Assembly (NCBI GenBank): GCA_001774945.1
Contig: MFBL01000043.1
Location: 2,782 to 66,781 of the forward strand
Length of the DNA: 64,000 nucleotides
From: Candidatus Curtissbacteria bacterium RIFCSPHIGHO2_12_FULL_41_17
GTDB lineage: Bacteria; Patescibacteriota; Microgenomatia; Curtissbacterales; GWA2-41-24
Direction of reading: 5' to 3'
Made by a program: the position numbers and the translations under genes
The notes under the pieces: generated by a model
What the model was told of the DNA's origin: nothing
The model's input: only the letters and a program-made list of their open reading frames with translations
Databases searched by the model: none
In this document: piece after piece, positions 26,506-42,115 of the stretch
How positions within the stretch are numbered: position 1 is the stretch's first letter
Layout of the letters: each line of letters starts with the position of its first letter

Positions 26506-28025
26506 GAGTGAATTACATGTTCAATAAAATCAAAAATTTTTTGATATGAATCTTTACCAAACGCGTCACAGCAATTTTTAACGACCTTATCCTGAATTGA
26601 TCTTTGTTTGGCCAAAGCACGGGGATTGCCGATAAACTTAAGAATTACCCTGTCTATTTTGGGCAAAGATTTAATCGGCACATTCACCGCGGCACCGCTT
26701 TTCGTCATAAAATTACCATCAACCTCTTGGAGCCACGAGTTGTGAAAGAAAAAAAGAGGCTTTTTGTAAAGCATCGCCTGGAAACCTGCTGTGGTGGCCC
26801 CAGTAAGGACTATGTCGTTATTTTTAATATCATCAGCAAGGGGGTGTGTACTGAACCCGAAATTTGAAGGAAGATCAATTGCTTTAAAATCACCCCCCTT
26901 ATTATAAGATGGATGCGCCCTTACCGTTATTAGAAATCTATTTGGCAGTTTTGATAAACCATTAATCAAGTCTCTTGTCACTGTACCATTCTCTATAGAA
27001 CGAAAAATTGCTTCCGTTCCAAACGGCGGCGCCAAAAGAACTAGAATGCCTATTGTTTTCTTTTTCTGAATGGCAAAATCATTCTTACCCACAGCATATT
27101 TTTTTAGAAAAGGAGACCCTACTTCAATTTTAACTTGGCGCATATTCTTGACTATTTCTGCCTGCTGTTTGGACCACATAAGTTCATAATCGCTTCGGTA
27201 AAACTGGGCATCAGTTTCCCACAACCAAATACCATGTTGGATTTCGGCAGAAGGAATACCTAATTTGTGAGCCATCAAACAAAAAGCCGATCCCGTTAAG
27301 TCATTGCTTGTAGTAGTCAACAGTAAGCGTGCCGAACTTAAAGAAAGCAATTTATTTGCTAACGATAATAGGCTTACTATTTCCGGAAACTGCACCAGTC
27401 GCAAGAACCATAGTCGTTTTTTCCAGTAATGACTACCGAATGGATAAACACGTGGTGTACTGCGTTGCCCTCTAGAGACAAAATAAGCTAGATATTTAAG
27501 CCTGCTAAATCTGTCCAAAAAAGATAATCCGCTTTGGAAATCAAAATAATCAATGGACGATTTGGACAATTGCTTTTTAAAGTGTTCGTTAAGTTTACCA
27601 ACGACCAGAATATCATATTTCCTGTGCAAAAAAGTTATTAGACCAAAAAGCTCTTCAATATGTCTTCCGCTTCCCAAGATAATGAGAGGAAAAATTTTAG
27701 AAACTTGAACTTGCTTACGAGCGTGCATGGTATCTTTAACTAAATCATAAGTCCTAAATAATATTTCCAGTATTTTTTTAAATCTATTTGTGCCGCGATT
27801 AACAATTAGCGGATAATTTGCCCAGACATCCATTACTAACCCTGACTGATTTTCCAAATCAAACAGACAGGAGAGAAAGTAATGCTGAGAAAAAGCTTGC
27901 ACAGTCTCAATTGCCACGCCTTTAAACTTAAAGTTGAGTTTTGGGTAATATCTTGAAATCCAGGAGTTAGAAAGATTAGCAGAGAGACTGTAATTTTTCT
28001 TTGTCTCCTGATAAGACTTAGGCAT
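26502..28025 (-). CDS. Putative polysaccharide-biosynthesis transferase (TagF/KpsS Capsule_synth-like).
   Basis: The C-terminal half (ITVRAHPSYNKGG...IVLTGATTAGFQAMLYKKPLFFF) resembles CDP-glycerol glycerophosphotransferase / capsule synthesis proteins. The call is weak. Confidence 0.3.
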   Translation of the reverse strand: MPKSYQETKKNYSLSANLSNSWISRYYPKLNFKFKGVAIETVQAFSQHYFLSCLFDLENQSGLVMDVWANYPLIVNRGTNRFKKILEILFRTYDLVKDTMHARKQVQVSKIFPLIILGSGRHIEELFGLITFLHRKYDILVVGKLNEHFKKQLSKSSIDYFDFQSGLSFLDRFSRLKYLAYFVSRGQRSTPRVYPFGSHYWKKRLWFLRLVQFPEIVSLLSLANKLLSLSSARLLLTTTSNDLTGSAFCLMAHKLGIPSAEIQHGIWLWETDAQFYRSDYELMWSKQQAEIVKNMRQVKIEVGSPFLKKYAVGKNDFAIQKKKTIGILVLLAPPFGTEAIFRSIENGTVTRDLINGLSKLPNRFLITVRAHPSYNKGGDFKAIDLPSNFGFSTHPLADDIKNNDIVLTGATTAGFQAMLYKKPLFFFHNSWLQEVDGNFMTKSGAAVNVPIKSLPKIDRVILKFIGNPRALAKQRSIQDKVVKNCCDAFGKDSYQKIFDFIEHVIHS

Positions 28026-28566
28026 GGCGGTGAATTTTAGCGAGAGTAGCGTTTACTACCTCTATATAAAGAGGGTATAAATCATTGTAGACATCCGCCT
28101 CGACTTTATTTTTGATACTATCTATTCTTATAAATTTTTCAACAATTACTTTTCCGCCGTCAACTTTTTCGGTCATCCAATGAGATGCCACTGAAGCCTT
28201 GTTAACTCCGTCATTTATTAGTCTTAAAATGGGTTTTGCACCTTTGTATTTATATAAGCATGGATGGATGTTAATGCAGGGTATGGATTTTACCAAATGA
28301 GGACTAAAGATCTTCTTACCATGACAGCACAGTAGTAAATCAATCTGCTTTGCTAACTTTTCAATTAATTCTTGATCATCCAATTTATGTTTGGGGAAAA
28401 TTTGCAGGTTGAATTCTTCGGCTATTTTTTCGATTTTTTCGTCTTCGCAAAAAACAGCTCTTATATTGTGTCCTTTGGCAATCAAGTTCAGTAGAACTAT
28501 CATACCTGTACTTTGACCACCATAAAAAGCAATTTTCATCTTTAATTTGTTTTGACCATTTTCCAA
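28018..28566 (-). CDS. Formyltransferase-domain protein (Fmt/ArnA-N-like sugar N-formyltransferase).
   Basis: KIAFYGGQSTG and IHPCLYKYKGAKP compare with the formyl_transf motif HPSLLPKYRG. Confidence 0.55.
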   Translation of the reverse strand: MENGQNKLKMKIAFYGGQSTGMIVLLNLIAKGHNIRAVFCEDEKIEKIAEEFNLQIFPKHKLDDQELIEKLAKQIDLLLCCHGKKIFSPHLVKSIPCINIHPCLYKYKGAKPILRLINDGVNKASVASHWMTEKVDGGKVIVEKFIRIDSIKNKVEADVYNDLYPLYIEVVNATLAKIHRHA

Positions 28567-29663
28567 GAAAGTGGTGTACCGCGTTCTATATCGCCTTTTG
28601 CAGTCCTCCCTATAACATCTTCATAATACTTAGGAGCCAACCCGTCTCCGGGCCTGATACATCTCACGTTGTCTGGTGTTAAAGTATCGCCCTTTTTGAT
28701 ATCATTGATGGCAAAAATCGATTGCGAAAACCTTCTACCATTGTAGATTTCGGCTGGGTTTACTGGTCCGTACTTTACTCTCCCTATAACTTCTTTTGCA
28801 AATGGTGTGTTTAAAATATCCGTCCCCATTTTTTCATTTTTTCGGATTTGCCGAACCATCTGAGCAACTTCATCTGGCTCTATCGAAAATGAGGCATCAG
28901 GCCCACCCATCGAACGCTTTAAAATTACATGCTTTTCGACTATGGCAGCACCTAGAGCTGCTGCAACAATGGGAATTTTGATACCGCCATTATTATCAGA
29001 AAATCCTGTGACTGCCTTAAACCTTTTGGATATATCCGGTATTGTTTTAAGATTGATATCGGCAAGTGCTGGTTTCGAAGCGTAGCTTGTTACGCAATGA
29101 AGAATTGCAATCTGGTCCACACCGTTTTCTTTTAGAGTTTTTAGAGCAAGTTTAATATCAGAAATGCTTGCAAATCCCACAGAAAGGATAACAGGCTTAC
29201 CTATTTTTGCAACCTTTCTCAAAAGAGGAATATGACTTGCTTCATAAGAGGAAATTTTGTAGGCCGGAGGATTGATTTCTTTTTCTAAATAATCAACAGC
29301 CGTCTCATCAAATGGCGTCGAAAAAAGGATTAAGCCTAAGCTTTTTGCAAGTTTTGAAAGTTTTGGTTGCCAGTCCCAAGGGGTATAAGCGGTTTTGTAA
29401 AGGTCATAAAGTTTGTGTCCTCTCCAAGCGTTTGGCGTATCTTCAGACTCCACGATAAACCACTTCTTATCACAATCAATTGTTAGAGTGTCTGGTGTAT
29501 AAGTTTGCAATTTGACAGCATCTACACCGGCAGCGGCTACTGCTTTAATTAACCGGACGGCTTCATCATAATTTTGGTGATGGTTCCCCGAAATCTCAGC
29601 AACAATAAAACAAGGATGACCTTGACCGATTTTCCTGTGGCCAATCTTAATAACTTTTGCCAT
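28542..29663 (-). CDS. pseI: NeuB-family nonulosonic acid synthase (PseI/NeuB/LegI) with a C-terminal SAF domain.
   Basis: Carries HPCFIVAEISGNHHQNYDEAVRLIKAVAAAGVDAVKLQTY. The ORF extends to 29750, but the likely start is MAKVIK at 29663, which avoids a long overlap with the upstream GT2. Confidence 0.75.
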   Translation of the reverse strand: MAKVIKIGHRKIGQGHPCFIVAEISGNHHQNYDEAVRLIKAVAAAGVDAVKLQTYTPDTLTIDCDKKWFIVESEDTPNAWRGHKLYDLYKTAYTPWDWQPKLSKLAKSLGLILFSTPFDETAVDYLEKEINPPAYKISSYEASHIPLLRKVAKIGKPVILSVGFASISDIKLALKTLKENGVDQIAILHCVTSYASKPALADINLKTIPDISKRFKAVTGFSDNNGGIKIPIVAAALGAAIVEKHVILKRSMGGPDASFSIEPDEVAQMVRQIRKNEKMGTDILNTPFAKEVIGRVKYGPVNPAEIYNGRRFSQSIFAINDIKKGDTLTPDNVRCIRPGDGLAPKYYEDVIGRTAKGDIERGTPLSWKMVKTN

Positions 29664-30354
29664 GCGATTTTGGTAATAAGTACGAACGTATTTGAGAAAT
29701 TTCAATAAGTTTGTTCGGATGAAGCTCCTCAAGCTCTTTGATACCGGCAATAACTTTTGACTGTTTAGCCGTAATGCTTTGCGTGTCGCGATGATAAGTA
29801 AAAAGGGATTTATTTATATGTTGACCATTCCATTTGCCAAGAGTTCTCAAGAATAAATCATATTCGATAAAAGTAATATTAGGATTGTAAAGCCCCTCAT
29901 CCAATACCCGCTTCCGCCTCATCATTACACCAATCATTACACTTTCAAATATATTTTTAGGCGAAACTGTTTTTTTATTCCCCTTATATTCCTCTATGTA
30001 GTCACAATATACAAAATCTACAGAACTTGAACTGTCAAGAACTTCCGCCTCCTGTGAAAGCAAATCGGGATCAAATTCATCATCGCCGTCAAGAAAAACG
30101 ATGTAATCTCCTTGACTTGATAAAATTCCCGTGTTTGCCGCTTGAGCATGTCCTTGATTTTCTTGATTGACTATCCGTAAATTTTTAACAGATGCGAACT
30201 TTTTTATTATCTCCAAAGTCTTGTCGGTCGAACCGTCATTGACAACAACAACCTCGAAGTCTTCTTCTGGGTAATTTTGTCCAAGGGAACTTTTAATAGC
30301 TCTTTCTAAGGTTTTCTCATTATTAAAAGCCCTGATAATAATTGAGACTTTCAT
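29647..30354 (-). CDS. Glycosyltransferase family 2.
   Basis: Carries VSIIIRAFNNEKTLERAI...VVNDGSTDKT and FLDGDDEF as the DxD region. Confidence 0.7.
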   Translation of the reverse strand: MKVSIIIRAFNNEKTLERAIKSSLGQNYPEEDFEVVVVNDGSTDKTLEIIKKFASVKNLRIVNQENQGHAQAANTGILSSQGDYIVFLDGDDEFDPDLLSQEAEVLDSSSSVDFVYCDYIEEYKGNKKTVSPKNIFESVMIGVMMRRKRVLDEGLYNPNITFIEYDLFLRTLGKWNGQHINKSLFTYHRDTQSITAKQSKVIAGIKELEELHPNKLIEISQIRSYLLPKSHGKSY

Positions 30355-30357
30355 TTA

Positions 30358-31602
30358 TCAATTATCCATGCCTTTACCAAAGAGAATGTAAGAGTTTACT
30401 CTTGGCTCCTTTGAAGCGCTCACTTGAAAAACACAACTATCTTTTTTTGTAAGGCGAACTTTACCAACACCCTCATCTCTTATGTGACCAGTAACAGAAT
30501 CTTTTAGTGTCCAATTATGTTCACTACTCTTCCTCCAAATTTTAAGATTCCTAAATTGGTCTATCAAAAAATAAAAACCCAGCTCTGTCATCCCTATCCA
30601 GTCCAAAAATAATTGCAGATTTTGGGGTTTTTTATTTTGGTAATTCTTAACCTGATTAATTCCTTCTTCTCGAGTTAACCTTTTTAGCCTAATTTCTCTT
30701 ACGGCATGATCCGTTGCTTTACCATAACCCAATTTCAAAAATTTAATATAATCATGTACGTCCGAGTAATTAAAACAGTCGACATCATTATAGGTATCAA
30801 AAGTTCTAGTTTGAGCAGCAGTTTGATAGCCGTACTCCTTTATCATATCTTCATGCTGTTTTTTTGAATCCCATCGAATGTAATTGGAGAGATATATGCC
30901 GCGGATACCAATCCTTTCGATTTCCTTATCGTGAGGATAGATAAATGGTGTTAAATCTTCACGGCTTAGGTAATTTTGCTGATCAATCAGGTCTTCTGCT
31001 TCATAATCCAGAAGATCATGCTCCTTGCGGTATTTTCTAGTCATTTCAACTTCATCCAAGTGAGAAAACATACCCACCTGGTCGATACCCTGATGCCCCC
31101 CCCAAATAATTAACGGAATTTTAAATCTAACAGCTGTTTGAACAGGAAAAACCGTTTGGCCGGCAAGGCAATGCCAATACATACTGCCCATTTTTTGTAA
31201 AGTTACCTTGGTAATTTTTTTAACAATTTTGGGATTAACAGTCAATGTAAGCAAATCACAATCAAATAGGGTTTTGAGGTAAGCTAAATTTCTAATCCCA
31301 ATAGGAGTATTATATTGTTTATTATAAGTAACCAGCAGGGGATTCATTTTATAAATATTTTTTATAGTATGAACAATAAAGTAAGAATCCCTTGCTCCGG
31401 AAACGGGAACAATACAGTCATAATTTTCTTTTGATTTATTCCTGAAACCATCCAAAATCCTCTTGAGTTTTTTGATCCGCTTGTCCCAATCCAGAATATC
31501 TTTTTCTTCATGGACCCTGCAGCCGCTGCAAACCCCCTCGTTGTCAAAAGTAATATTTAATGGGTGGTTAGCCGGATATATACAACGTGTGCAGTATTTC
31601 AT
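30358..31602 (-). CDS. N-acetyl sugar amidotransferase (WbuX/PseA-like PP-loop ATPase).
   Basis: A Cys-rich N-terminus (MKYCTRCIYPANHPL...CSGC) and PP-loop-like CIVPVSGARDS are present. The ORF is open to 31722, but the likely start at 31602 abuts the HisF-like gene. Confidence 0.6.
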   Translation of the reverse strand: MKYCTRCIYPANHPLNITFDNEGVCSGCRVHEEKDILDWDKRIKKLKRILDGFRNKSKENYDCIVPVSGARDSYFIVHTIKNIYKMNPLLVTYNKQYNTPIGIRNLAYLKTLFDCDLLTLTVNPKIVKKITKVTLQKMGSMYWHCLAGQTVFPVQTAVRFKIPLIIWGGHQGIDQVGMFSHLDEVEMTRKYRKEHDLLDYEAEDLIDQQNYLSREDLTPFIYPHDKEIERIGIRGIYLSNYIRWDSKKQHEDMIKEYGYQTAAQTRTFDTYNDVDCFNYSDVHDYIKFLKLGYGKATDHAVREIRLKRLTREEGINQVKNYQNKKPQNLQLFLDWIGMTELGFYFLIDQFRNLKIWRKSSEHNWTLKDSVTGHIRDEGVGKVRLTKKDSCVFQVSASKEPRVNSYILFGKGMDN

Positions 31603-31603
31603 A

Positions 31604-32476
31604 TTAAATAATCTCAGGAGGATAATATTTGAATCTTTGCTCGGCAAGGTACCGATCTGGTCTTTTAGCAATCCTGCCCCCGTCATCAAATTCAAAATCC
31701 ATATAATGTGCCTGCGTGTCAAATCTTATATCGATGCCTTTCTTTTGCAGGTATGCTTTAGCGTTTATTACGCTATGCTCTGTGAAATGAAAAAAATTGC
31801 CTGCTGCCGCACAATTTGCCCTACCTTGTGTCATTACGTCAACAAAGTCTTGTGGATGTCCTGCTCCGCCACAGGCGATTACCGGAATATCAACAGCCTC
31901 TACTATCATCCTGACCATATTAATGTCATACCCAACCTTTGATCCGTTCCTGTCAACACAGTTGAGCAATATCTCTCCAGCCCCCAAACTTGCTAAAGTT
32001 TTGGCCCATTTGACCGGATCTTTTTCCGGTATATCAATGCCGAAATTGGAAAAAACAGAATATTTTTTATCTTTGTCTAATTTAACATCAATCGATGCAA
32101 CTATGCACTGGTTGCCCAATATGGATGCCCCCTTTTTAATCAAAAGAGGGTCTTTCAAGGCAGCACTATTAATAGCAATTTTATCTGCGCCAAATTTTAC
32201 CAACTTCTGCATGTCGCCAACCGAACTTATTCCCCCGCCAACCACCAAGGGCACGAAGCATTTTTTTGAAACACTTTGAATTTCTAAAAAATCCGGCCCC
32301 TGGTCTTTAGGAGTCGCTGATATGTCTAAATAAATTATTTCATCTATACCCCAGGAATTTAGAAATTCGACGGCAATTTGGGCTTTTCCTACCGGTAGAT
32401 ATTTAGAAAAGCCGATACTTTGGACGACTATACCATCGCGGATGACCAAAATTGCTGTTAACCTTTTTTTTAACAT
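31604..32476 (-). CDS. HisF-like imidazole-glycerol-phosphate-synthase cyclase homolog (WbuZ-like).
   Basis: (beta/alpha)8 HisF-like blocks: IDEIIYLDISA, VGGGISS, VIACGGAGHPQD. Confidence 0.65.
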   Translation of the reverse strand: MLKKRLTAILVIRDGIVVQSIGFSKYLPVGKAQIAVEFLNSWGIDEIIYLDISATPKDQGPDFLEIQSVSKKCFVPLVVGGGISSVGDMQKLVKFGADKIAINSAALKDPLLIKKGASILGNQCIVASIDVKLDKDKKYSVFSNFGIDIPEKDPVKWAKTLASLGAGEILLNCVDRNGSKVGYDINMVRMIVEAVDIPVIACGGAGHPQDFVDVMTQGRANCAAAGNFFHFTEHSVINAKAYLQKKGIDIRFDTQAHYMDFEFDDGGRIAKRPDRYLAEQRFKYYPPEII

Positions 32477-33100
32477 TTAATTGATGCCGCAATAATTAAA
32501 AAAACTTCGATAAATCCGCAAGCCGTTATTTTGGCTCTTCTCCGGATGAAACTGGACACCGAAAATATTATCCTTTTGTATTGCGGCTATCATCTTATGA
32601 CCATAAATGAAAGTAGCCGCAACAAACTTGTTATTGCAAACAAAGTGATAACTGTGATCAAAGTAAAAATTCGTGTTGGAAGACACACGCGAAAAAAGCG
32701 GATTTTTAGAAACGGCATGAATATTATTCCAACCCACATGGGGAACTCTAATTTCCTGGCCGGGTGGAACTTTCGCTACGTGTCCACTAACCCATCCAAG
32801 ACCTTTATGGAAGCCGTTTTCAACAGAATCATTCGCCAGAATTTGCATTCCCAAACATACCCCCAGGATTGGCTTTTTTCGCTTTATAACTTCATGGGCC
32901 AATACATCAACTATGCCAATTGCTTTTAAATTTTTCATCGCCTCTGGGAAAGCTCCAACTCCCGGGAGGATATAGGCTTGTGCTCTTTTAATATCCGCAG
33001 GAGAATTAGAGATTAAAAAATCATAACCTAAGAACGTTAGCGTATTTGCAACCGATTGGTGGTTCCCCAGTTTGTAATCTATTAATAATATTTTTTTCAT
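32477..33100 (-). CDS. HisH-like class I glutamine amidotransferase (WbuY-like).
   Basis: Carries KILLIDYKLGNHQSV, PILGVCLGMQIL with the catalytic Cys, and HPE. The likely start is the MKKILL Met. Confidence 0.7.
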   Translation of the reverse strand: MKKILLIDYKLGNHQSVANTLTFLGYDFLISNSPADIKRAQAYILPGVGAFPEAMKNLKAIGIVDVLAHEVIKRKKPILGVCLGMQILANDSVENGFHKGLGWVSGHVAKVPPGQEIRVPHVGWNNIHAVSKNPLFSRVSSNTNFYFDHSYHFVCNNKFVAATFIYGHKMIAAIQKDNIFGVQFHPEKSQNNGLRIYRSFFNYCGIN

Positions 33101-34218
33101 ATTAATGGCGTTTTTAAAACCCATTTTCCCTGTTTGTCTTTCTTCCAAATATCTTTGTTTCTGAATGATTCAACAACTTGCCAAAATTTATTTTCTAATA
33201 TTTCAATGTAGTTGCAGAATTTTTTAATGTAATAATTGGAACATTTTCCATCATATTTTTTAACCAGATCCACCGCTTCTTCGCGGGTCATTCTACCAAA
33301 TCTAATCTCTTCACATACCTCGTCCGTAACTTGTCCAAAGCCATACTTTATGTATTTGATCATTTGATTAACAATTACGAAATCATCATCCAGTGCGTTA
33401 AATGGGAAAATATGTCCGGTATTGCCCGGAGAGTCTTCCCTGATTTCCAGTCCTCTTGCTATCGAAAACTTTGCATTATCCAGCTTGGTAAAATCTCGCC
33501 AGTAGTAGCCCAAATATTGGATCTTTAACTTTCCCCATTCCAACTCTTCATCCGAAGAGTAACGATACCAAAGAGCTTGCTGTCTAGCTATATTTTCGTC
33601 CTCAAGTAACTCATCTGGGTTGCCTCCGGCAAGAGTATTTGAGTACTTCATTTTACCCGCGTCTGCCGAAATGGAGCCAACCCCTAAATCACCTAACTGA
33701 ATAGCAGGATTTTCACCTAAAAAAATTAGGGGAATTTGATAAGCGATGGCAACTTTTGGGGCGCTTGCGTAAAGTGCCATTTCCGTTGATTTTGCCCAGT
33801 TACCGTATTTTAAAAAACTGCGGCGCATCAGCTTTTTCCATATTTGGGGAGCCGGAGCAATTGTTACTGTGTCAAAACCTAAGGATATTAAATTGCTAAT
33901 ATTGTGGGCACCTCTTTCGGTTAACTGCTCCGGAGGATAACCACAACAAACCAGCAGCGGTTTTAATCCTAGCCCATCTCGAACGTACAAAGATTGCCTA
34001 GTGCTGTCTTTCCCGCCGCTTACACCGACAATACAATCATAACCTGAAACATTATGTTTCTTTCCAAAATCGGCGATTTCCAGAAGTTCTCGTTTCCTCT
34101 GCTCCCAATCAATCTCATCAAATTTCGCTGTGAACCGACAGGGAGGACAAATGCCATCAGAGTCAAACTTTATGCCCGGCCTTGTGTCGGGCTGGACGCA
34201 TTTTTTGCAGTATCTCAT
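33097..34218 (-). CDS. N-acetyl sugar amidotransferase, second paralog (WbuX-like PP-loop).
   Basis: Carries MRYCKKCVQPDTRP...CPPC and the PP-loop DCIVGVSGGKDS. Confidence 0.65.
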   Translation of the reverse strand: MRYCKKCVQPDTRPGIKFDSDGICPPCRFTAKFDEIDWEQRKRELLEIADFGKKHNVSGYDCIVGVSGGKDSTRQSLYVRDGLGLKPLLVCCGYPPEQLTERGAHNISNLISLGFDTVTIAPAPQIWKKLMRRSFLKYGNWAKSTEMALYASAPKVAIAYQIPLIFLGENPAIQLGDLGVGSISADAGKMKYSNTLAGGNPDELLEDENIARQQALWYRYSSDEELEWGKLKIQYLGYYWRDFTKLDNAKFSIARGLEIREDSPGNTGHIFPFNALDDDFVIVNQMIKYIKYGFGQVTDEVCEEIRFGRMTREEAVDLVKKYDGKCSNYYIKKFCNYIEILENKFWQVVESFRNKDIWKKDKQGKWVLKTPLI

Positions 34219-34769
34219 TTTCTTTTAGGTGCATCGAATTCACTTGATAATATTCCATACTCAACAATATCCGCATACTCTCTGTCTTTAAAAAACGCTT
34301 TTCTTCTTCTTCCTTCCTCAATCATCCCCAAAGAAACGGCAAGTTTTTGCATGGCAATATTTTTTGATGACGTGCCACAATAAATTCTATTCAAATTAAG
34401 TTCGTCAAATCCGTGCTTTAAAATCAAAAGAGCAGCTTCTTTAGAATAACCTTTGTGCCAGTAGTCTTTTTCTCCCAACAATATCGTAAGCTCTCCGCTG
34501 CGGTTAACCGGGTCAATATTTTGAAGAGCGATATTACCAATGTGCAAATTTTTGCCCGTCAAAACAATTGCCAGGACAATTTTATCTTTAGTCTTACTGC
34601 TCTGCTTAATATACTTACGCCCTTCACTGTAAGAGTAGGGGAAAGTGTTATGGGAGTTATATCTGGAGACTTCTTCATTATTTAACCACGAAACGTAATT
34701 ACCTTGAAGATCTTTTTCTTCCAAGGGCCGCAAATATATGTTTTTGCCTGCCAAAAAAGGATTTCTCAT
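34215..34769 (-). CDS. GNAT-family N-acetyltransferase (RimL/PseH-like).
   Basis: The length and the motif HKGYSKEAALLILKHGFDELNLNRIYC are typical of RimJ/RimL-type GNATs. Confidence 0.6.
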   Translation of the reverse strand: MRNPFLAGKNIYLRPLEEKDLQGNYVSWLNNEEVSRYNSHNTFPYSYSEGRKYIKQSSKTKDKIVLAIVLTGKNLHIGNIALQNIDPVNRSGELTILLGEKDYWHKGYSKEAALLILKHGFDELNLNRIYCGTSSKNIAMQKLAVSLGMIEEGRRRKAFFKDREYADIVEYGILSSEFDAPKRK

Positions 34770-34777
34770 AAGCTTTA

Positions 34778-35482
34778 TTATTTAACCATCTTTTGTGCTG
34801 CCAAAAGGTCTGACGGGTTATCAATATCCACGTTTTCGTTTTCGTCCATGATCACAAACTCTATGCTGTTGTCATCCACCAGTTTATTCATTTTCATCAG
34901 CACTTCGTATTTTGAGAAATAAATCGCGCCGTCTTCCCTATATAAAGGTTTGTAATATTGACGGTTAACTCTCTCTTTTGGATAAAAAGGCACGTATTTA
35001 TTTTTACCTTCATCAAAGCGCCATAACCTACCCCAATCGCGCACAACGCTTACAACGCTATTGCATTTTTTCTTCTGGAATAAATCCAGCGCCTCTTCAA
35101 CTCTCTCTTTTCTTAAAAAGGGAGCAGTAGGGTAGAGAAGCAGCACTATATCACAACGATAACCCTCCTCGTCTTCGAGGTATTTAATTGCATGTTGTAA
35201 AACAGGTAAAGTAGGAGTTTGGTCGTCGGCTAATTCCTTTGGTCTGTCAAACGGAGTTTCGGCACCGTATTTATTGGCAATGGCCTTTATCTCACTATCA
35301 TCGGTTGAAACAATCACTCTATCAATTCTTGGCACTGATAAAGCTAAACCGATTGGCCATGCTATTAGCGGTTTGCCGCCAAGAGGTAGAACATTCTTTC
35401 GTGGAATGGATTTTGAACCGCCTCTGGCGATAATGATGGCAACAATTTTTTTATGGCCGCCTTGTTTATTTTTCATTTTCAA
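34778..35482 (-). CDS. pseF: Acylneuraminate cytidylyltransferase family (CMP-nonulosonic acid synthetase, PseF/NeuA-like).
   Basis: VAIIIARGGSKSIPRKNVLPLGGKPLIAW is the CTP_transf_3 signature. Confidence 0.75.
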   Translation of the reverse strand: MKMKNKQGGHKKIVAIIIARGGSKSIPRKNVLPLGGKPLIAWPIGLALSVPRIDRVIVSTDDSEIKAIANKYGAETPFDRPKELADDQTPTLPVLQHAIKYLEDEEGYRCDIVLLLYPTAPFLRKERVEEALDLFQKKKCNSVVSVVRDWGRLWRFDEGKNKYVPFYPKERVNRQYYKPLYREDGAIYFSKYEVLMKMNKLVDDNSIEFVIMDENENVDIDNPSDLLAAQKMVK

Positions 35483-36479
35483 TCAAATTGATTATGTTTT
35501 TAATCGGTCCTTTTATGTAATTAACCGTTGATTTTGCTTTAAAATTTCCTTCGAGATATCTCTTAATCTCTCCTGCCAAATCACTTTTAGCAGTCACAAT
35601 TTTATCACAGAGAATAGATTTTTCTCTTATTAGCTCATTTTTAGAAAGCCCTGGCTGATACGAGACAACATTCCTTCCAACAAGATTTGCAAGATAAAGC
35701 ACAATAGAGTTCATGCCAAAAACCAAACCGTGTTTTTTTAACGAATTTTTTAAATCGAGCCTGTCAATTTTTACGTTACCGTGTTTTTTCAGGTAACTGT
35801 TATATTTACTTGGGTAGTCTTTAGGGTGCAATCGGAGAGATAATTTTACATCTTGCTTCTTTAACCCCGAAAGTACTGCCAAAAGATCATCAAATACACT
35901 AAACTCGTCAAAACCAAACATATTTAATTTATGAGTTTTGTTAACCCTCGATAATGGTTGAGAAATAAATAATATTGAGTCATGTTCATTGCCGGAAGTT
36001 CCGAAGCCAGTTGTAAAATATTCAAAATAGGGATTACCGGTAACGCAAATTACTTTCGGATTAAACCCTAACTTAACCATCTCCTTTTTTGCAAGGTCAT
36101 CCATCACGCAAATTAAATCCGGTAAAAATTTGAAGTCTCCCGGGTTGTTTGAAAATCTTTGAACGTAATTTGACCAGTAATCAAGGATATAAATTGATCT
36201 TATTTTGCGCTTCTTGCAGTAATATAAAACTTTCTTGTCGATAGTAGGACCAACGCTTGTTCCCGCTAAAAAAAGGTTTGGCTTAAACTTTGTCAGCATC
36301 CTTTCCAACTCTGCCTGGCTGATCTTATCAGCGTCTTTAAAATCAATATCCCATGAGCAGAAAATCTTTTTGGCGGGTCCCTCGATAATATTTAATAGAG
36401 TATGCTTTTTGAGTTTTCTTATAAGCGGGAAAACAGCATTGGCAGCTCCAGGGTCAGACGCGCTAACAACGACCCTCAT
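35466..36479 (-). CDS. PseG-like / GT28-C-domain protein (candidate UDP-sugar hydrolase).
   Basis: Two Rossmann-like halves, and its position between the cytidylyltransferase and an aminotransferase in the Pse-type operon. The call is weak. Confidence 0.3.
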   Translation of the reverse strand: MRVVVSASDPGAANAVFPLIRKLKKHTLLNIIEGPAKKIFCSWDIDFKDADKISQAELERMLTKFKPNLFLAGTSVGPTIDKKVLYYCKKRKIRSIYILDYWSNYVQRFSNNPGDFKFLPDLICVMDDLAKKEMVKLGFNPKVICVTGNPYFEYFTTGFGTSGNEHDSILFISQPLSRVNKTHKLNMFGFDEFSVFDDLLAVLSGLKKQDVKLSLRLHPKDYPSKYNSYLKKHGNVKIDRLDLKNSLKKHGLVFGMNSIVLYLANLVGRNVVSYQPGLSKNELIREKSILCDKIVTAKSDLAGEIKRYLEGNFKAKSTVNYIKGPIKNIINLIENEK

Positions 36480-37810
36480 TCTAAAAGTTCCAATTTACAT
36501 TGAAGCACTTTATTAACAGCATCGAAAAAAAGATCAATTTGACGATAAGTCCTTGGATGCTGGCATATATCCGTGAATGTCAGCTCTTTCTCATACAATC
36601 TTTCAGTTACCGGACAAAGCCCTCTATCGTAATTGGTATTGTAGCCGTCGTAATCAAAAGGAAAATGGGTTTGATTGAAAACATGTTTTTCTTGAAAAAG
36701 TTTTAGGAGGTAAATGGGCTTTACATAACCTTTGGACATCGGGAAACCCTCAGCAGCCATGGCTTCAACGAATAGGTTTCTGCTTATACCTAATTTATTT
36801 TCGTCTATCTTGATGGGGAAAACGTAATAAACATGTTTTTTATCTTTATCTTCCTTTGGTAGGATAAAGCCTTCAATATCTGCAAGCTTTGATCGCAAAT
36901 GATTTACAAGGTCTAACCTCTTTTCGTTTAAGAAATCTAATTTTTTAAGTTGGTAATACCCAAGCAGCGCATGGATTTCACTCATCCTAAAATTATTGCC
37001 CATAACCGGTCCCAGATGGTAATTTGGGTCTTCGTCGGCAACTATTTCTCCGTGGTTTCTCACAAGTTGTGCCCGATAGGCGCTGTGTTTATTATTCGTT
37101 ACCAAAACTCCTCCCTCGCCAATTTGGATAACTTTATGAACGTTGAAACTAAAAACTCCAACGTCGGCAATAGTTCCCGTGTACTTACCTTTATATTGCG
37201 CACCAGGAGCTTGAGCATTATCCTCAATAGTTTTAAGTTTATATTTTTTGGCGATTTTAAGAATTTGGTCAAAATCTGCCGGATTCCCAAACAGGTTAAC
37301 AATCATTATCGCCTTTGTTCTTGAACTAATTACTTTTTCAATTGAGGTAGGATCAACACAAAAATTATCCTCATCGATATCCGCAAAAACCGGTACGGCT
37401 CCATTTGCCAAAATGCTTGTTGCAGATGCCGACATCGTGTATGGTGGAACGATAACTTCGTCCCCTGGTCCTATCTCAAGACTTGCGACTGCAGCTTGTA
37501 ATGCGGTTGTTGCGCTATTAAAAGTGACTGCAAATCTGGATCCAAATTTCTTACAAAATAAGAATTCCAACTTTCTAACTTGTTTTCCGCCTAAGAATTT
37601 ATCACCTGTTATCCCGACAAAGTCGGAAAGCGGGCCCTTACCCAGGAGTTTTATAAGAGATTCGATTTCTTTTTTGCTTATATTGTAAACAGGATCGAAA
37701 GGTTTATTTAAAATCGGCTTGCCGCCCAAAATGGCTAATTTTTTCCCCACTTTGAGTTCCTTTCTATGAGGGCTATAATTTTTAAAGCCGCCAGTGCTTC
37801 TTCTCCCCAA
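36476..37810 (-). CDS. DegT-family PLP aminotransferase with N- and C-terminal extensions.
   Basis: Carries FSFNVHKVIQIGEGG. The annotated ATG would overlap the upstream gene by 76 bp, so the true start may be a downstream TTG/GTG. Confidence 0.7.
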   Translation of the reverse strand: MGRRSTGGFKNYSPHRKELKVGKKLAILGGKPILNKPFDPVYNISKKEIESLIKLLGKGPLSDFVGITGDKFLGGKQVRKLEFLFCKKFGSRFAVTFNSATTALQAAVASLEIGPGDEVIVPPYTMSASATSILANGAVPVFADIDEDNFCVDPTSIEKVISSRTKAIMIVNLFGNPADFDQILKIAKKYKLKTIEDNAQAPGAQYKGKYTGTIADVGVFSFNVHKVIQIGEGGVLVTNNKHSAYRAQLVRNHGEIVADEDPNYHLGPVMGNNFRMSEIHALLGYYQLKKLDFLNEKRLDLVNHLRSKLADIEGFILPKEDKDKKHVYYVFPIKIDENKLGISRNLFVEAMAAEGFPMSKGYVKPIYLLKLFQEKHVFNQTHFPFDYDGYNTNYDRGLCPVTERLYEKELTFTDICQHPRTYRQIDLFFDAVNKVLQCKLELLE

Positions 37811-38712
37811 ACGATATTGTTTTTCTTCCCTAAAAAATAATTATCAATGTTTTTGTAAACCGGGAGCAAACCGCCGGAAATATCGACGAAAAAACCCGAC
37901 TGTCTGGATCTTGTAAGAAAGTTAGACGATCTCTCAACCCGATACAAGTTTAATTTATCATTTTGAATGTTTATTCTGCCATTTTCAAGCAGAATATCCA
38001 TCTCAAATAGATTAAAAAATTTATAGTCCAGCCCTTGAATAAAAGCGTTAAACCCATCCCTAAAACTAATAACGCAATCCATTGTTTTGTCGGTCTCCTT
38101 CGATGCTGCTCTGTCGAAAAATCCTTGAGCACTTTTTACGTCTGGTGAAATCTTGAGCAGCAGGTTTATAAAATGAGAACCGTTATTATATAAGCCCTTA
38201 GTGTACTTGCAGTTTATCGACTGGACCCTACCAAATTTCCCCTCTTTGATGGATTCAATGAGTCTAATGTAACTGTCGGTAAAACCTCGAAAATAATTTA
38301 CGGCAAATCCAACATTATGCTTTTTTGCCTTGTCGACAATTCTTTTTGCACTCTGGTAAGAATATGAAATCGGCTTTTCGCAAAGGATAAATTTAATCCC
38401 CGCGTCGATTGCTAGATCACATATCTGTATATGTGAATTTGTATTGGTGGCAACAACCAAAAGATCAAGTTTCTGACTACTAATCAATTTTTTTGCTGAA
38501 CTGTAAATTGCAACTTGATGGTCTACTTTCCCCTTAAACACTTCTCGCGCCGTCGCGCTTTCATCACTAGCCGCGACTAGTTCAAAATCGTCAATGGCTT
38601 TAATAGCTGACAGATGTGTTGGGTATTTCATCCTACTAACTACATGAGGATCATCCTCGTAACCATGAGTGATTCGTCCAAGTCCAATTATTCCTGTGCT
38701 AATTTTTTTCAT
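37735..38712 (-). CDS. Gfo/Idh/MocA-family oxidoreductase.
   Basis: Carries STGIIGLGRITHGY at the N-terminus and CEKPISYSYQSAKRIV. Confidence 0.65.
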   Translation of the reverse strand: MKKISTGIIGLGRITHGYEDDPHVVSRMKYPTHLSAIKAIDDFELVAASDESATAREVFKGKVDHQVAIYSSAKKLISSQKLDLLVVATNTNSHIQICDLAIDAGIKFILCEKPISYSYQSAKRIVDKAKKHNVGFAVNYFRGFTDSYIRLIESIKEGKFGRVQSINCKYTKGLYNNGSHFINLLLKISPDVKSAQGFFDRAASKETDKTMDCVISFRDGFNAFIQGLDYKFFNLFEMDILLENGRINIQNDKLNLYRVERSSNFLTRSRQSGFFVDISGGLLPVYKNIDNYFLGKKNNIVWGEEALAALKIIALIERNSKWGKN

Positions 38713-39824
38713 CGAAGTGCTTTTTTTAAACTCTCAATGACATACATTTGCTCATTTAATTGTAATCCGGCATACAAAGGTAAAGACAAGGCTTGATGGT
38801 AATAGCTTTCGGCGATGGGGAAATCTCCTATCTTGTAATCTTTTCGGTAGAGGCTAAAAAAATGAATCGGAATATAATGAACTTGAACACCTATTCCGTC
38901 TTTGCGCATTTTGTCAAAAACCCTTTTCCTATTTTTAGAATTCATTCTAATTGGAAAAAGATGCCAGGCACTTTTTGCTTCTTTTTTCTCAACGGGCAAT
39001 GAAACGCCATCAACATTTCTCAATTGCTTTTGGTAAATACCCCAGATTTTCCTGCGTGTTTGTATAAAGGAGTCGATTTTTTTAAGCTGGCTTGCACCAA
39101 GAGCTGCTTGTATATCGGTCATCCGAAAGTTGTAGCCAAGCGTATCCACATCGTAATACCATCCGCCTTTACTTTTAGACTCTTTCGGTCTGCTAATTCC
39201 GTGATGCCTGATCTTCTTGATCGTTTCAAAATATCTCTTTTCGTTTGTGGCAACAGCTCCCCCCTCTCCCGTAGTAATTGCTTTGACCGGATGAAAAGAG
39301 AAGGTTGTTAAATCAGCGATACTTCCGATTCGCCTGCCTTTATATACGCTTCCTAAAGCGTGAGAAGCATCGTCGATTAATATTAAGTGATATTTACCAG
39401 CAAGTTTTTTTAATTTATCCCAGTCGGCAGGGTGACCGGCAAAATCCACGGCAATAATCGCTCGGGTTTTTTGAGTAATTTTTTTTTGGGCTTGTTCTAC
39501 ATCAATCGTTATAGTATCTGGATAAACATCACAAAGAACGGGTTTAGCGCCGCAGTATAAGACACAATTGGCACTGGCAACAAAAGTGAGTGCCGGAACG
39601 ATAACTTCATCTCCGGGTCCTATCCCTGCAGCTATACAGGCGGCGTGCAGGGCACATGTTCCATTTGCAACAACGCACGTATATTTGGCGCCGACGAATT
39701 TAGAAAGGGATTTTTCAAACTGCTCTATTCTTTTTCCTTGAGTAATCCAATCAGATTTAAGAGCTTCAACTACGGATGAAATGTCACTGTCATCAATGAG
39801 CTGATGGCCATATGGAATAACCAT
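38709..39824 (-). CDS. pseC: PseC-like DegT aminotransferase (UDP-4-amino-4,6-dideoxy-hexose transaminase).
   Basis: Carries YGHQLIDDSDISSVVEALKSDWITQGKRI, DEVIVPALTFVASANCV and FSFHPVKAITTGEGG. Confidence 0.7.
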   Translation of the reverse strand: MVIPYGHQLIDDSDISSVVEALKSDWITQGKRIEQFEKSLSKFVGAKYTCVVANGTCALHAACIAAGIGPGDEVIVPALTFVASANCVLYCGAKPVLCDVYPDTITIDVEQAQKKITQKTRAIIAVDFAGHPADWDKLKKLAGKYHLILIDDASHALGSVYKGRRIGSIADLTTFSFHPVKAITTGEGGAVATNEKRYFETIKKIRHHGISRPKESKSKGGWYYDVDTLGYNFRMTDIQAALGASQLKKIDSFIQTRRKIWGIYQKQLRNVDGVSLPVEKKEAKSAWHLFPIRMNSKNRKRVFDKMRKDGIGVQVHYIPIHFFSLYRKDYKIGDFPIAESYYHQALSLPLYAGLQLNEQMYVIESLKKALR

Positions 39825-39826
39825 AA

Positions 39827-40801
39827 TTAGGCTTTGACTATGCCCGAGATTTGTTTCTTAATTTCACCAACTGATAACCACTGGTCATTATTGTCACTCG
39901 TATAGCTGAATGATTTGAAACCGCGATTAACTTTGGGAAGCGTATTAGCTGACCAGTGAATAATTGCGAAGTGGCTGCCCAAATCATGGCTATTCCTGGA
40001 TTCTTCATAGCTGATCAAAACTTCATGAATTTTCTCGCCTGGCCGTATGCCGATGACATCAATTTTTGCCTTTGGCGCGACAGCCCTTGCGATATCAACT
40101 ATTTTAACGCTGGGTATTTTTGGCACGAAAATTTCTCCTCCCGCCATTTTACCAAGACATTTTAAGACGAAATCCACTCCTTGTTCTAAAGTTATCCAAA
40201 ATCTTGTCATTCGGGTATCTGTAATATTTAACCGATTCCCTTTTGCCTGTTCTATAAAGGCCGGCACCACACTGCCTCTTGAACCAACCACGTTGCCATA
40301 CCTTACAACGCTAAGTCTGGTTTTTGTTGCACCAGCGTAAACGTTGCCCTGAACAAATAATTTTTCAGCAACCATTTTGGTCGCTCCATACAAATTCACC
40401 GGAGAAACCGCTTTGTCGGAAGAAACCAATATAGCTTTTTTAACTCCTGTATCAATTGCCGCTTCAATGACATTTTGACTGCCCAAAATGTTTGTTTTTA
40501 CCGCTTCATACGGATTGTATTCCAAAATCGTCACCTGTTTTAAGGCAGCGGCATGGATTACAATGTCGGCGTCGTACATAGCGCGTTTAAGCCTTTCAAG
40601 ATCTCGAACGTCTCCGATAAAAAAGCGCAGCCGTTTATCATTATCGTAAATTCGCGCGAGTTCATACTGTTTAAACTCGTCTCTTGAGAATACGCGGATG
40701 ATGCCGCGGAAGGAATTGCCTGATAGCACCTTGGCGATAAACGCCTTTCCGAAAGAGCCAGTGCCGCCGGTTAAGAGGATTGTTTGATTGGTTAGTTTCA
40801 C
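39827..40801 (-). CDS. pseB: PseB/FlaA1-like UDP-GlcNAc 4,6-dehydratase (short CapD-like SDR).
   Basis: Carries ILLTGGTGSFGKAF, YGATK and IHAAALKQV. Confidence 0.7.
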   Translation of the reverse strand: MKLTNQTILLTGGTGSFGKAFIAKVLSGNSFRGIIRVFSRDEFKQYELARIYDNDKRLRFFIGDVRDLERLKRAMYDADIVIHAAALKQVTILEYNPYEAVKTNILGSQNVIEAAIDTGVKKAILVSSDKAVSPVNLYGATKMVAEKLFVQGNVYAGATKTRLSVVRYGNVVGSRGSVVPAFIEQAKGNRLNITDTRMTRFWITLEQGVDFVLKCLGKMAGGEIFVPKIPSVKIVDIARAVAPKAKIDVIGIRPGEKIHEVLISYEESRNSHDLGSHFAIIHWSANTLPKVNRGFKSFSYTSDNNDQWLSVGEIKKQISGIVKA

Positions 40802-40852: not shown

Positions 40853-42115
40853 CTACTTTAAGATAATAGGAGAGGGGAGAGGAACAATAAATTTTCCCCT
40901 GAAACCACGCTGTTTTAACTTGGAAGAAAGCTCATCTGCGATATGCCATGAAAACAAGAACGCATAGTCGGGTTGGTCGCGAAACAACCGTTCCTCGTCA
41001 ACAACAGGTATAAGAGTCCCTGGCATATACCTTCCTATTTTGTGTGACCCTTTAACTTCACAAATGTAATCAATCATTCCATCGTCGATTCCGCAATAGC
41101 TTACAAGAGTACTGCCTCTTGACGGTGCCCCAATGCCATATATAGTTTTATCTTTGGATTTTAGCTTATATATCAAATCCAAAATCTGAAGTTTAGAAAG
41201 AATAACCCTTTTTCTAAAATTCAAAAGCGCTTTCTTTGAATCAACAATACCCTTTTCCATCCTGAGCATTTTGGAAACAGTAGGCAAAATTTTCCTTTCA
41301 CCCTTTCTTGCTGCATATACTCTAATCGATCCTCCGTGTGATGGAATTTTTTTAGCGTGGAATATCTCAAGTCCGTACATTGAAAGTAAATACTTCAAAC
41401 TACGAAGCGAGTAATAACGCATATGTTCATGATAAATAGTGTCGTATTGCAAAGTTTTGATAAGAGAGTAAAGGTAATGAGATTCAGATACAAAAACCCC
41501 ATTTGGTGCCAGAAGTCTCTTAATATTTTTCATCACTTCAGGAAGATCTTCCATATGAGCAAAAACGCTGGTTGCCGTAATAAGAGCAGCCTTGCCCTTT
41601 TTCTTTATGATGTTGTCAACAACGGTTGGGGTAAAATAATCAATAATAGTTTCGATTCCTTTTTCAATTGCCAGCCGGCCTATTTCTTCCGGCGTGATCC
41701 CGAGCACTCTATGATTGTCTTTAAAATTGGAAAGCAAGTTACCATCGTTTGAACCAATGTCTACGATTAAGTCTTTCCTCGTAAGCGCTAAGATTTTCAA
41801 GGACTCTCTATAAAGTTCTGCGAAGTTGTCTCTTAATACTTTTGTTGTACTGCTTGTGTAAGGATATTCGGCAGGAAAAAGAATTTTAGGGTCGACAATT
41901 GTTCCAAGTTGGACAAGCAAGCATTGTGGACAGTACAGCCATTGTGCGGGATAACTGGGCTGCCTGATTGGTCTCGTACCAATTTTCGGCATGATGTTTA
42001 CTGGGGGTAAGTAACCCAAAAAAAGTATGGGCTCAAGTTTTTTATTTCCGCAAATTTGGCAGCTTTCAACGGGAATACTAGTGTTAGTTCCAAAAGCAAG
42101 AACTCTTTTAACCAT
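40853..42115 (-). CDS. SAM-dependent sugar C-methyltransferase (Methyltransf_13 zinc-ribbon plus Methyltransf_14; TylC3/NovU-like).
   Basis: Has an N-terminal CQICGNKK...CPQCLLVQL zinc ribbon, a VDIGSNDG SAM motif, and a length of about 410 aa. Confidence 0.55.
   Translation of the reverse strand: MVKRVLAFGTNTSIPVESCQICGNKKLEPILFLGYLPPVNIMPKIGTRPIRQPSYPAQWLYCPQCLLVQLGTIVDPKILFPAEYPYTSSTTKVLRDNFAELYRESLKILALTRKDLIVDIGSNDGNLLSNFKDNHRVLGITPEEIGRLAIEKGIETIIDYFTPTVVDNIIKKKGKAALITATSVFAHMEDLPEVMKNIKRLLAPNGVFVSESHYLYSLIKTLQYDTIYHEHMRYYSLRSLKYLLSMYGLEIFHAKKIPSHGGSIRVYAARKGERKILPTVSKMLRMEKGIVDSKKALLNFRKRVILSKLQILDLIYKLKSKDKTIYGIGAPSRGSTLVSYCGIDDGMIDYICEVKGSHKIGRYMPGTLIPVVDEERLFRDQPDYAFLFSWHIADELSSKLKQRGFRGKFIVPLPSPIILK

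Follow-up and report, generated by a model that had tools for sequence, protein, structure and literature searches.

A pseudaminic-acid-type gene cluster with a twin amidotransferase cassette and a conserved Gfo-DegT-GT-B triad in a Candidatus Curtissbacteria genome

We analyzed a 64-kb stretch of DNA (hereafter the window) from Candidatus Curtissbacteria bacterium RIFCSPHIGHO2_12_FULL_41_17, a member of the candidate phyla radiation (CPR, Patescibacteria), on contig MFBL01000043.1 (positions 2,782 to 66,781), which carries an operon predicted to make a pseudaminic-acid-type nonulosonic acid. A sequence-only reading of the window had placed a minus-strand operon here, and we found that this operon exists but is larger than that reading stated, with 18 genes running from 43102 down to 25375 (Table 1). 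The open reading frames (ORFs) named earlier were all found on the minus strand, with some starts differing by a few codons. The genes are tightly packed: neighbors overlap or stand 0-8 nt apart, and the sole larger gap (51 nt) lies upstream of PseB. Genes called independently on identical contigs agree with these, the same gene order is seen on several metagenome contigs in ENA, and the operon is kept gene-for-gene in a related locus (L042) at 37-80% identity. The glycan-biosynthesis island takes up nearly the whole window, which has a GC content of ~37%. The amidotransferase WbuX2 of the operon has a counterpart of 100% identity in Candidatus Curtissbacteria bacterium RIFCSPHIGHO2_02_FULL_40_17, whose CPR genome comes from groundwater. 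When plasmids were searched with tblastn, WbuX2 found relatives at 25-32% identity at best and the GT-B fold protein GT-B337 found no match, while a scan of the window for consensus promoters and terminators gave the same counts as in shuffled sequence.

To assign families, we used NCBIfam models with curated equivalog cut-offs, together with Pfam. The proteins read earlier as PseB-like and PseC-like both score over the equivalog cut-offs, and the NeuB-family synthase exceeds that for PseI. How these proteins group had been set beforehand as the test of a pseudaminic acid pathway as opposed to a Neu or Kdo pathway, and we found that the synthase groups with PseI and the short-chain dehydrogenase/reductase (SDR) with the inverting PseB. 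The window holds one NeuB-family gene and one CTP_transf_3 gene only; the latter, claimed as an acylneuraminate cytidylyltransferase, does belong to that family, and the PseF model is by far its best match, though below the cut-off. The GNAT protein is an acetyltransferase as proposed but is weakly PseH-like. The formyltransferase was borne out at the family level: its best NCBIfam match is dTDP-4-amino-4,6-dideoxyglucose formyltransferase, and an N-I-H motif and a later Asp can be read in its translation. A formyl group on the sugar is plausible, since related loci of several phyla also have a short formyltransferase gene adjoining that for PseI. Either the GNAT or the formyltransferase could take the place of PseH.

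Table 1. Genes of the minus-strand operon, grouped by module, with coordinates in the window
Feature	Coordinates	Strand	Evidence
PseB, inverting UDP-GlcNAc 4,6-dehydratase	39827..40801	-	TIGR03589 442 bits vs cut-off 407.75; FnlA 245 vs 730
PseC, C4 aminotransferase	38709..39824	-	TIGR03588 478 bits vs cut-off 423.5
PseI, pseudaminic acid synthase	28542..29663	-	TIGR03586 391 bits vs cut-off 340.25; NeuB/NnaB 259 vs 399.65
CMP-nonulosonate synthetase, PseF-like	34778..35476	-	TIGR03584 168 bits, under cut-off 205.7; Pfam CTP_transf_3
GNAT N-acetyltransferase	34215..34769	-	Pfam Acetyltransf_3 2e-25; PseH model TIGR03585 29 bits vs cut-off 93.1
Short formyltransferase, N-terminal domain only	28018..28539	-	Pfam Formyl_trans_N 1.6e-13
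WbuX1, N-acetyl sugar amidotransferase, canonical PP-loop SGGKDS	33097..34218	-	TIGR03573 304 bits vs cut-off 203.2
HisH/WbuY-like glutaminase subunit	32477..33100	-	HisH model 213 bits; GVCLGMQ and HPE motifs in translation
HisF/WbuZ/AglZ-like barrel, presumed ammonia conduit	31604..32476	-	WbuZ 245 bits (cut-off 300), HisF 228, AglZ/HisF2 212, all below cut-off
WbuX2, second N-acetyl sugar amidotransferase, variant PP-loop SGARDS	30358..31602	-	TIGR03573 346 bits vs cut-off 203.2
Gfo/Idh/MocA oxidoreductase, first triad member	37735..38712	-	Pfam GFO_IDH_MocA
DegT2, second pyridoxal phosphate aminotransferase	36476..37750	-	Pfam DegT 7.5e-90
GT-B337, GT-B fold protein of distinct family	35466..36479	-	No PseG match; 2-epimerase-like model
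SDR, LegB- or dTDP-glucose-4,6-dehydratase-like, first operon gene	42119..43102	-	LegB 146 bits, dTDP-glucose dehydratase 142, both below cut-off
NDP-hexose C-methyltransferase-like protein	40853..42115	-	Pfam Methyltransf_14 1.4e-41, Methyltransf_13 zinc domain, Methyltransf_23
Small GT2 glycosyltransferase	29647..30354	-	Pfam/NCBIfam GT2
GT-B507, GT-B glycosyltransferase-like, 507 amino acids	26502..28025	-	No Pfam/NCBIfam family; AlphaFold (AF2) model pLDDT 94.2
Polytopic membrane protein, last operon gene	25375..26502	-	Hydrophobic translation; no family match; overlaps GT-B507 stop

Compared to the Campylobacter and Helicobacter pathway to cytidine monophosphate (CMP)-activated pseudaminic acid (PseB, C, H, G, I, F plus PseA), the operon is alike in its PseB, PseC, and PseI equivalogs, its CTP_transf_3 cytidylyltransferase, and its clustered amidotransferase of the WbuX/PseA family. 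On the other hand, it has no PseG homologue, and it carries two amidotransferase paralogues with dedicated HisH and HisF proteins, a Gfo-DegT-GT-B triad, and a formyltransferase. Together, these findings suggest that a pseudaminic-acid-type nonulosonic acid with modified N-substituents is synthesised, CMP-activated, and probably also transferred by products of the operon, a reading that we hold with somewhat more confidence than doubt.

The gene for GT-B337 had been labeled PseG-like and the pathway apparently complete, and neither description survived. We found that GT-B337 matches neither PseG (TIGR03590) nor Glyco_tran_28_C nor any other family, and that it has no sequence match in the PDB; because the 64 kb contain no PseG homologue, a complete pathway is not demonstrated. 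An alignment-based AlphaFold (AF2) model of GT-B337 adopts the GT-B fold with a mean predicted local distance difference test score (pLDDT) of 92.5, and its top 49 Foldseek matches are uridine diphosphate (UDP)-GlcNAc 2-epimerases and related enzymes (E ~6e-12, template modeling score 0.6-0.7), NeuC among them, while PseG lies outside the top 50 matches of both GT-B models (GT-B337 and GT-B507). Profile searches returned weak matches to an archaeal 2-epimerase, KpsC, and SiaD. Across the family, which comes mostly from CPR bacteria, 31 of the 46 members match Pfam Epimerase_2 weakly and 15 of the 46 match polysialyltransferase (polyST); D100, E192, and H218-P219 are invariant, and a Ser-Gln-Pro motif is nearly so. 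An hhalign comparison of the family with the WecB encoded in the window gave a probability of 1.3%, too weak for aligning catalytic residues. GT-B337 is a candidate nucleotide-sugar hydrolase/2-epimerase or transferase, and it is the only conserved candidate for release of the hexose in the window and in the minimal CPR clusters (L006, L007, L014, and L022). A simple replacement of PseG by GT-B337 is ruled out, since genuine PseG coexists with GT-B337 homologues in loci outside the CPR, and the conserved role of GT-B337 is thus not simply that of PseG.

Separately, we observed that other CPR loci carry a DUF218 (YdcF/SanA-like) protein in the position that PseG holds outside the CPR, in the order DUF218-formyltransferase-PseI (L008:7097-8722, L016:5708-6346, and 14 further loci). 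In L008, it is fused to the Gfo oxidoreductase. The DUF218 protein may be an unrecognised enzyme of the nonulosonic acid pathway; the window has none.

The epimerase-like character of GT-B337 raises the question of configuration. If GT-B337 were a hydrolysing 2-epimerase, the product would be a C5 epimer of pseudaminic acid, alternatively, the UDP-hydrolase may be encoded elsewhere or be missing. PseB, PseC, and PseI all pass cut-offs specific to pseudaminic acid, and the operon is intact and conserved as a whole in L042, both of which speak for a working pathway of the pseudaminic type; the lack of PseG from the 64 kb, the Epimerase_2 likeness of GT-B337, and the DUF218 proteins in the PseG position elsewhere speak for a different configuration or an incomplete pathway. 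We judge this alternative to be quite improbable. Stereochemistry itself is beyond the reach of sequence and cannot be assigned.

We next consider the amidotransferases. The module of WbuX, HisH, HisF, and WbuX genes was recovered as had been described: both WbuX proteins score above the TIGR03573 cut-off, WbuX1 matches the Legionella enzyme 8WEX at 6.7e-34, and the motifs of the HisH Cys-His-Glu triad are intact in translation. The HisF-like barrel has a Val at the Thermotoga maritima HisF cyclase residue D11 while D130 is retained, and the Val at D11 fits a role as ammonia conduit. In this arrangement, the operon resembles WbuX/WbuY/WbuZ, WbpG/HisH2/HisF2, AglX/Y/Z, and the Legionella NASAT 8WEX, where a PP-loop, tetracysteine enzyme stands beside HisH/HisF-like genes and the HisF-like protein likewise lacks a cyclase catalytic residue. 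However, in those systems, as far as described, each HisH/HisF pair comes with a single WbuX, whereas in the operon two deeply diverged paralogues flank the pair in a fixed order, one of them with an SGARDS loop. The earlier prediction of acetamidino groups follows naturally from the WbuX family (PMC10607449), and a pseudaminic-acid-type sugar with acetamidino groups is supported at the homology level. The sole structural study of the family described a zinc-binding PP-loop dimer and did not address paralogue pairs (PMC10607449).

To place the pair in context, we gathered cassette loci from metagenomes using WbuX2, which yielded 80 loci at 54-74% identity, 43 of them with enough upstream sequence. 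The exact order WbuX1-HisH-HisF-WbuX2 is found in 36 of the 43, and six more have a WbuX1-like neighbor (42/43 in total). WbuX1 and WbuX2 are 29% identical, and each has a separate orthologue clade, which rules out a recent tandem duplication; the double amidotransferase, read earlier as an unusual local duplication, is instead an ancient pair in a widespread, fixed cassette. Public data contain 5,933 homologues of WbuX2 at E<=1e-50, with members in CPR bacteria, DPANN archaea, Omnitrophota, Geobacter sp. DSM 9736, and Leptospira perdikensis. The co-occurrence counts given below were restricted to loci of at least 12 kb (34 cassette loci, and 28 GTDB loci with a GT-B337 homologue). A NeuB homologue is present in 27 of the 34 cassette loci and a GNAT homologue in 22, in many directly before WbuX1; in the window, the GNAT stop overlaps the WbuX1 start.

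The company that the cassette keeps points to nonulosonic acids. In Leptospira it follows a cytidylyltransferase gene, and in L058 it follows a plain PseB-PseC-PseF-GNAT-GNAT-PseI cluster. In Geobacter sp. DSM 9736 (L121), it comes after NeuB, SDR, and cytidylyltransferase genes, and ~3 kb downstream lies a separate Gfo-LbH-DegT-HisH-HisF-WbuX set. Since this third WbuX has its own HisH and HisF, the pair serves the nonulosonic acid and is not split one per sugar, and one WbuX per sugar is thereby ruled out as the principal interpretation. We conclude that WbuX1 and WbuX2 are a unit dedicated to nonulosonic acids. Apart from this pair, a third WbuX type of ~405 amino acids with an N-terminal extension occurs in Kaiserbacteria and Paceibacteria (L021:4032-6619 and L012:4016-6871); it is flanked by a GNAT on one side and an Amidase-signature (GatA-like) protein on the other, HisH and HisF being absent, and the Amidase-signature protein may be an alternative ammonia supply.

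A dedicated pair could act as two enzymes or as one. The tetracysteine motif (CxxC...CxxC, a zinc site) is found in both paralogues, in 51/57 WbuX1 and 70/76 WbuX2 orthologues, with the misses mostly in truncated ORFs. On the other hand, the loops differ: every one of the 51 WbuX1 orthologues whose motif is recognisable has SGGKDS, as do 7/7 single-copy WbuX genes from other CPR loci, whereas SGARDS occurs in 45 of 63 WbuX2 orthologues. The two paralogues may, though we find it doubtful, be parts of a single heteromeric amidotransferase that acts with HisH/HisF to make one acetamidino group (Pse5Ac7Am or Pse5Am7Ac), with WbuX2 as a specialised or partly degenerate subunit. The clade-specific loop of WbuX2 is consistent with such a heteromer, as are the near-obligate co-occurrence, the fixed order, and the overlapping stops and starts. 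In eukaryotes, the TtuA relatives Ncs6 and Ncs2 form an active/degenerate heterodimer. The Legionella enzyme forms a dimer in the crystal, with TtuA-type enzymes as its nearest folds, but the residues of the dimer interface are not conserved across the family (PMC10607449). Single-WbuX systems also work alone elsewhere, and WbuX2 looks catalytically competent from its sequence because it retains the Ser, Gly, Asp, and Ser of the loop, the tetracysteine site, and the strong conservation noted above. If each WbuX acts on its own N-acetyl group, the product would have two amidino groups.

GT-B337 belongs to a second conserved module. The Gfo/Idh/MocA oxidoreductase and the DegT aminotransferase (DegT2), which had been regarded as extra genes, fall in the families given to them but are not ad hoc: they are members of a conserved Gfo-DegT-GT-B triad. 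To examine this, loci with GT-B337 homologues were gathered from GTDB genomes with an alignment of 11 closer sequences. Gfo is present in 24 of these 28 loci, DegT2 in 24 (23 within 1.5 kb), a NeuB homologue in 22, PseB in 17, and PseC in 16, and Gfo adjoins DegT2 in 23, so that Gfo-DegT2-GT-B forms a syntenic block in these contexts. The taxa include Kaiserbacteria, Paceibacteria, Saccharibacteria, Falkowbacteria, Omnitrophota, Melainabacteria-like cyanobacteria, Methanoperedens, Syntrophales, and others. The triad accompanies the twin cassette in 21 of the 34 cassette loci, and the typical order outside the CPR is PseG-formyltransferase-PseI-PseF-Gfo-DegT2-GT-B-GNAT-WbuX1-HisH-HisF-WbuX2.

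No other gene of the cluster is as conserved as DegT2 (54-68% identity across CPR loci), whose product is 33% identical to PseC. A single-sequence search gave the Kdo8N transaminase KdnA (5k8b) as the best PDB match of DegT2, while in a profile search perosamine synthetase stood above KdnA, which came eighth; perosamine synthetase scored 288 bits and WbpE 202, with BtrR and ArnB also high and PseC, like WbpE, lower. The EKP motif of Gfo (E112-K113-P114) is invariant in 27 orthologues. In the PDB, the Gfo profile matched 3q2k at 1.3e-34 and 3q2i at 6.7e-30, with an inositol dehydrogenase equally close (2.9e-34), and no chain named ElaA is among the PDB matches listed.

What the triad does is constrained by pathway logic. 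The oxygen at C3 of the hexose becomes the ring oxygen at C6 of the nonulosonic acid and closes the pyranose ring, so no pyranose could form from a C3-aminated hexose; C3 amination of a UDP-hexose that feeds PseI is therefore ruled out, and the remaining free hydroxyls of pseudaminic acid are those at C4 and C8. Three precedents support oxidation and then transamination of the nonulosonic acid, followed by acetylation by the GNAT: the KdnA match, ElaA, and a triamino sugar of Flexibacter. The KdnB/KdnA route to 8-amino-Kdo in Shewanella follows the same logic, in that a hydroxyl of an ulosonic acid is oxidised and then transaminated. However, KdnB belongs to the iron alcohol dehydrogenases and is not of the Gfo type, the route acts on an octulosonic acid, and the match of DegT2 to KdnA is not clearly better than that to perosamine synthetase. 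ElaA of Acinetobacter baumannii, a Gfo/Idh/MocA enzyme, has been proposed from crystal structures and docking to oxidise the C8 hydroxyl of CMP-Leg5,7Ac2 (PMC13656337). Like the ElaA/ElaB/ElaC system, a C8 epimerase of CMP-legionaminic acid in KL49, the operon has a Gfo/Idh/MocA gene in a nonulosonic acid cluster with a CMP-nonulosonate synthetase, a likeness of family, EKP Lys, and gene context (PMC13656337). The partner of Gfo in the operon is a pyridoxal phosphate aminotransferase and not an SDR reductase, and therefore we predict amination rather than epimerisation. Lastly, a pseudaminic-acid-like 5,7,8-triamino-3,5,7,8,9-pentadeoxy-'manno'-nonulosonic acid with its third amine at C8 is known from the O-antigen of Flexibacter (Tenacibaculum) maritimus (PMC3210612); its biosynthetic genes are not given at gene level, the Tenacibaculum O-antigen paper naming generic gene classes only (PMC9796276).

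Variants of the cluster retain the triad. In L006, L007, L014, L019, and L022, all from CPR bacteria, a short SDR stands beside PseB in place of PseC, together with the Gfo-DegT2-GT-B triad, a cytidylyltransferase, and a divergent NeuB (26-34% identity). Such a gene content suggests that the backbone is of a 7-hydroxy, fusaminic-acid-like kind, for which the triad is the only source of an added amine.

The same genes could instead serve a second sugar. Gfo, DegT2, GNAT, and GT-B337 map one-to-one onto the four functions of the known ManNAc3NAc(A) pathway and might make up a WbpB/WbpE/WbpD/WbpI-like route to UDP-2,3-diacetamido-2,3-dideoxy-hexose, with one WbuX (WbpG/AglX-like) for that sugar and the other (PseA-like) for pseudaminic acid. 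The two best PDB matches of the Gfo profile, 3q2k and 3q2i, which we take to be WlbA-type UDP-sugar 3-dehydrogenases, are in keeping with this, but the DegT2 partner is less so, scoring higher against perosamine synthetase and ArnB (C4 aminotransferases), KdnA, and BtrR than against WbpE. The structural neighbors of GT-B337 include the UDP-2,3-diNAc-GlcA 2-epimerase 8sxv, and WbpG acts on that class of sugar (PMC10607449). Yet the triad is tied to NeuB genes (22/28 loci), and a classical set for such a sugar stands separately on the plus strand of the window, with a UDP-GlcNAc 3-dehydrogenase-like Gfo (293 bits), a DegT, a WecB (277 bits), and a UDP-ManNAc dehydrogenase-like protein, a separation repeated in L112 and in the Geobacter locus L121. 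The twin cassette also occurs without the triad (L058, L121, and L122), and assigning GT-B337 to another sugar would leave NeuB in the minimal CPR clusters without an enzyme to free its hexose. We therefore think two sugars unlikely.

Returning to a single pseudaminic-acid-type product, we favor a positively charged, sialic-acid-like surface sugar with acetamidino and probably formyl groups that may have a third amino group as well, and we propose the following pathway. By homology, PseB and PseC would convert UDP-GlcNAc to a UDP-4-amino-4,6-dideoxy sugar, whose 4-amine may be acylated by the short formyltransferase or the GNAT. UDP would be removed by an enzyme other than PseG, for which the epimerase-like GT-B337 is the best candidate, and the freed hexose would be condensed with phosphoenolpyruvate by PseI and converted to the CMP-sugar by the PseF-like enzyme. 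As an oxidise-then-transaminate pair, Gfo and DegT2 may add an extra amino group at C8 or C4 of the nonulosonic acid, probably at the CMP-sugar stage, and the GNAT would then acetylate this DegT2-derived amine. WbuX1 and WbuX2, as ATP-dependent PP-loop enzymes, would turn N-acetyl into N-acetimidoyl groups, using ammonia that HisH releases as a glutaminase and that is presumably delivered through the HisF-like barrel, and GT-B507 and/or the GT2 protein may transfer the sugar. The nitrogen count would be three (N5 inherited from GlcNAc, N7 from PseC, and a third from DegT2), and there would be three acyl groups (the inherited acetyl, an acetyl from the GNAT, and a formyl), giving two acetyls for two WbuX enzymes. 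The sugar may carry more N-substituents than usual; the match of this bookkeeping to two WbuX enzymes is suggestive only.

Several points weigh against this pathway. A hidden Markov model of genuine PseG sequences taken from related loci found nothing in any ORF of the window at E<=10, and in non-CPR relatives bona fide PseG (TIGR03590 246-285 bits) is encoded alongside the GT-B337 homologue. The GNAT and the cytidylyltransferase fall below the PseH and PseF cut-offs, respectively, and the loop of WbuX2 is non-canonical. Our literature search found no report of a di-acetamidino nonulosonic acid. The presence of presumed WlbA-type entries among the top matches of the Gfo profile, combined with the likeness of GT-B337 to 2-epimerases, including that for UDP-2,3-diNAc-GlcA, fits a separate 2,3-diamino sugar equally well, and the regiochemistry, the order of steps, and the product are all inferred. 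More tentatively still, and thinking it unlikely, we raise the prospect of an undescribed polycationic triamino nonulosonic acid with a pseudaminic-type backbone, in which Gfo and DegT2 install a third amine at C8 or C4 of the CMP-sugar. It would bear one formamido group and a pair of acetamidino groups, with a separate WbuX paralogue responsible for each amidine. The cassette and the triad would then mark an unrecognised, widespread branch of nonulosonic acid biosynthesis common to CPR bacteria, DPANN archaea, Geobacter, and Leptospira.

We turn to the remaining genes of the operon. GT-B507 is a distant paralogue of GT-B337 from a family with 1,972 representatives; its nearest PDB folds are GT1 glycosyltransferases and MurG, and R369, H371, and P372 are kept in at least 90% of 50 aligned relatives. 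GT-B507 is probably the transferase for the sugar, and a likelier one than GT-B337. The GT2 gene is found at the same position in L041/L042 and is also present in L010 and L107/L108. At the start of the operon, the LegB-like SDR gene lies 3 nt upstream of the next gene and has homologues of ~35% identity beside the twin-WbuX cassette in L043/L044, while the C-methyltransferase-like gene co-occurs with the cassette in L043/L044 and L081. These two genes may act in modifying the nonulosonic acid or in making another sugar.

Other sugar genes surround the operon. Upstream on the minus strand (46468-53333) are an RfbH/E1-type 3-dehydrase (664 bits vs 423), a HAD hydrolase, an SDR, an Ldh_2 dehydrogenase, and a 651-amino-acid thiamine-diphosphate enzyme, a set that looks like a branched 3,6-dideoxyhexose pathway of the yersiniose type with a YerE-like enzyme. 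On the plus strand, a second sugar operon (13690-25373) encodes DegT, a LegB-like SDR, a GT2 protein, WecB, a 607-amino-acid HAD/PEP-utilising fusion, and an ATP-grasp ligase, along with a Gfo like UDP-GlcNAc 3-dehydrogenase and a protein like UDP-ManNAc dehydrogenase. The set is similar to the pathways by which Methanococcus and Pseudomonas aeruginosa make 2,3-diamino-uronic acids. Four large PMT_2/GT-C-like membrane proteins (5769-7457, 8349-10073, 10057-11718, and 23856-25373) and two further unannotated polytopic proteins (44805-46514 and the last product of the operon) suggest that the cell surface is the site of several lipid-linked glycosyl transfers.

Nonulosonic acids are displayed on flagella, pili, S-layers, and capsules, where they influence how hosts, phages, and partner cells recognize a bacterium. 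CPR bacteria spend their lives attached to other microbes, so their surface sugars are likely central to this lifestyle, yet we know of no CPR surface sugar that has been chemically defined. Our literature search returned nothing on nonulosonic acids in CPR bacteria, nor anything for PDB entry 8GYH. The locus represents a variant of nonulosonic acid clusters that is both widespread and uncharacterised, and it contains two conserved modules without assigned chemistry, the twin-amidotransferase cassette and the Gfo-DegT-GT-B triad that accompanies such clusters in many phyla. Since the cassette is also found in the culturable Geobacter sp. DSM 9736 and Leptospira perdikensis, its function is directly testable. 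Such tests could lead to a new class of positively charged sialic-acid analogues and to new enzymes for making such sugars.

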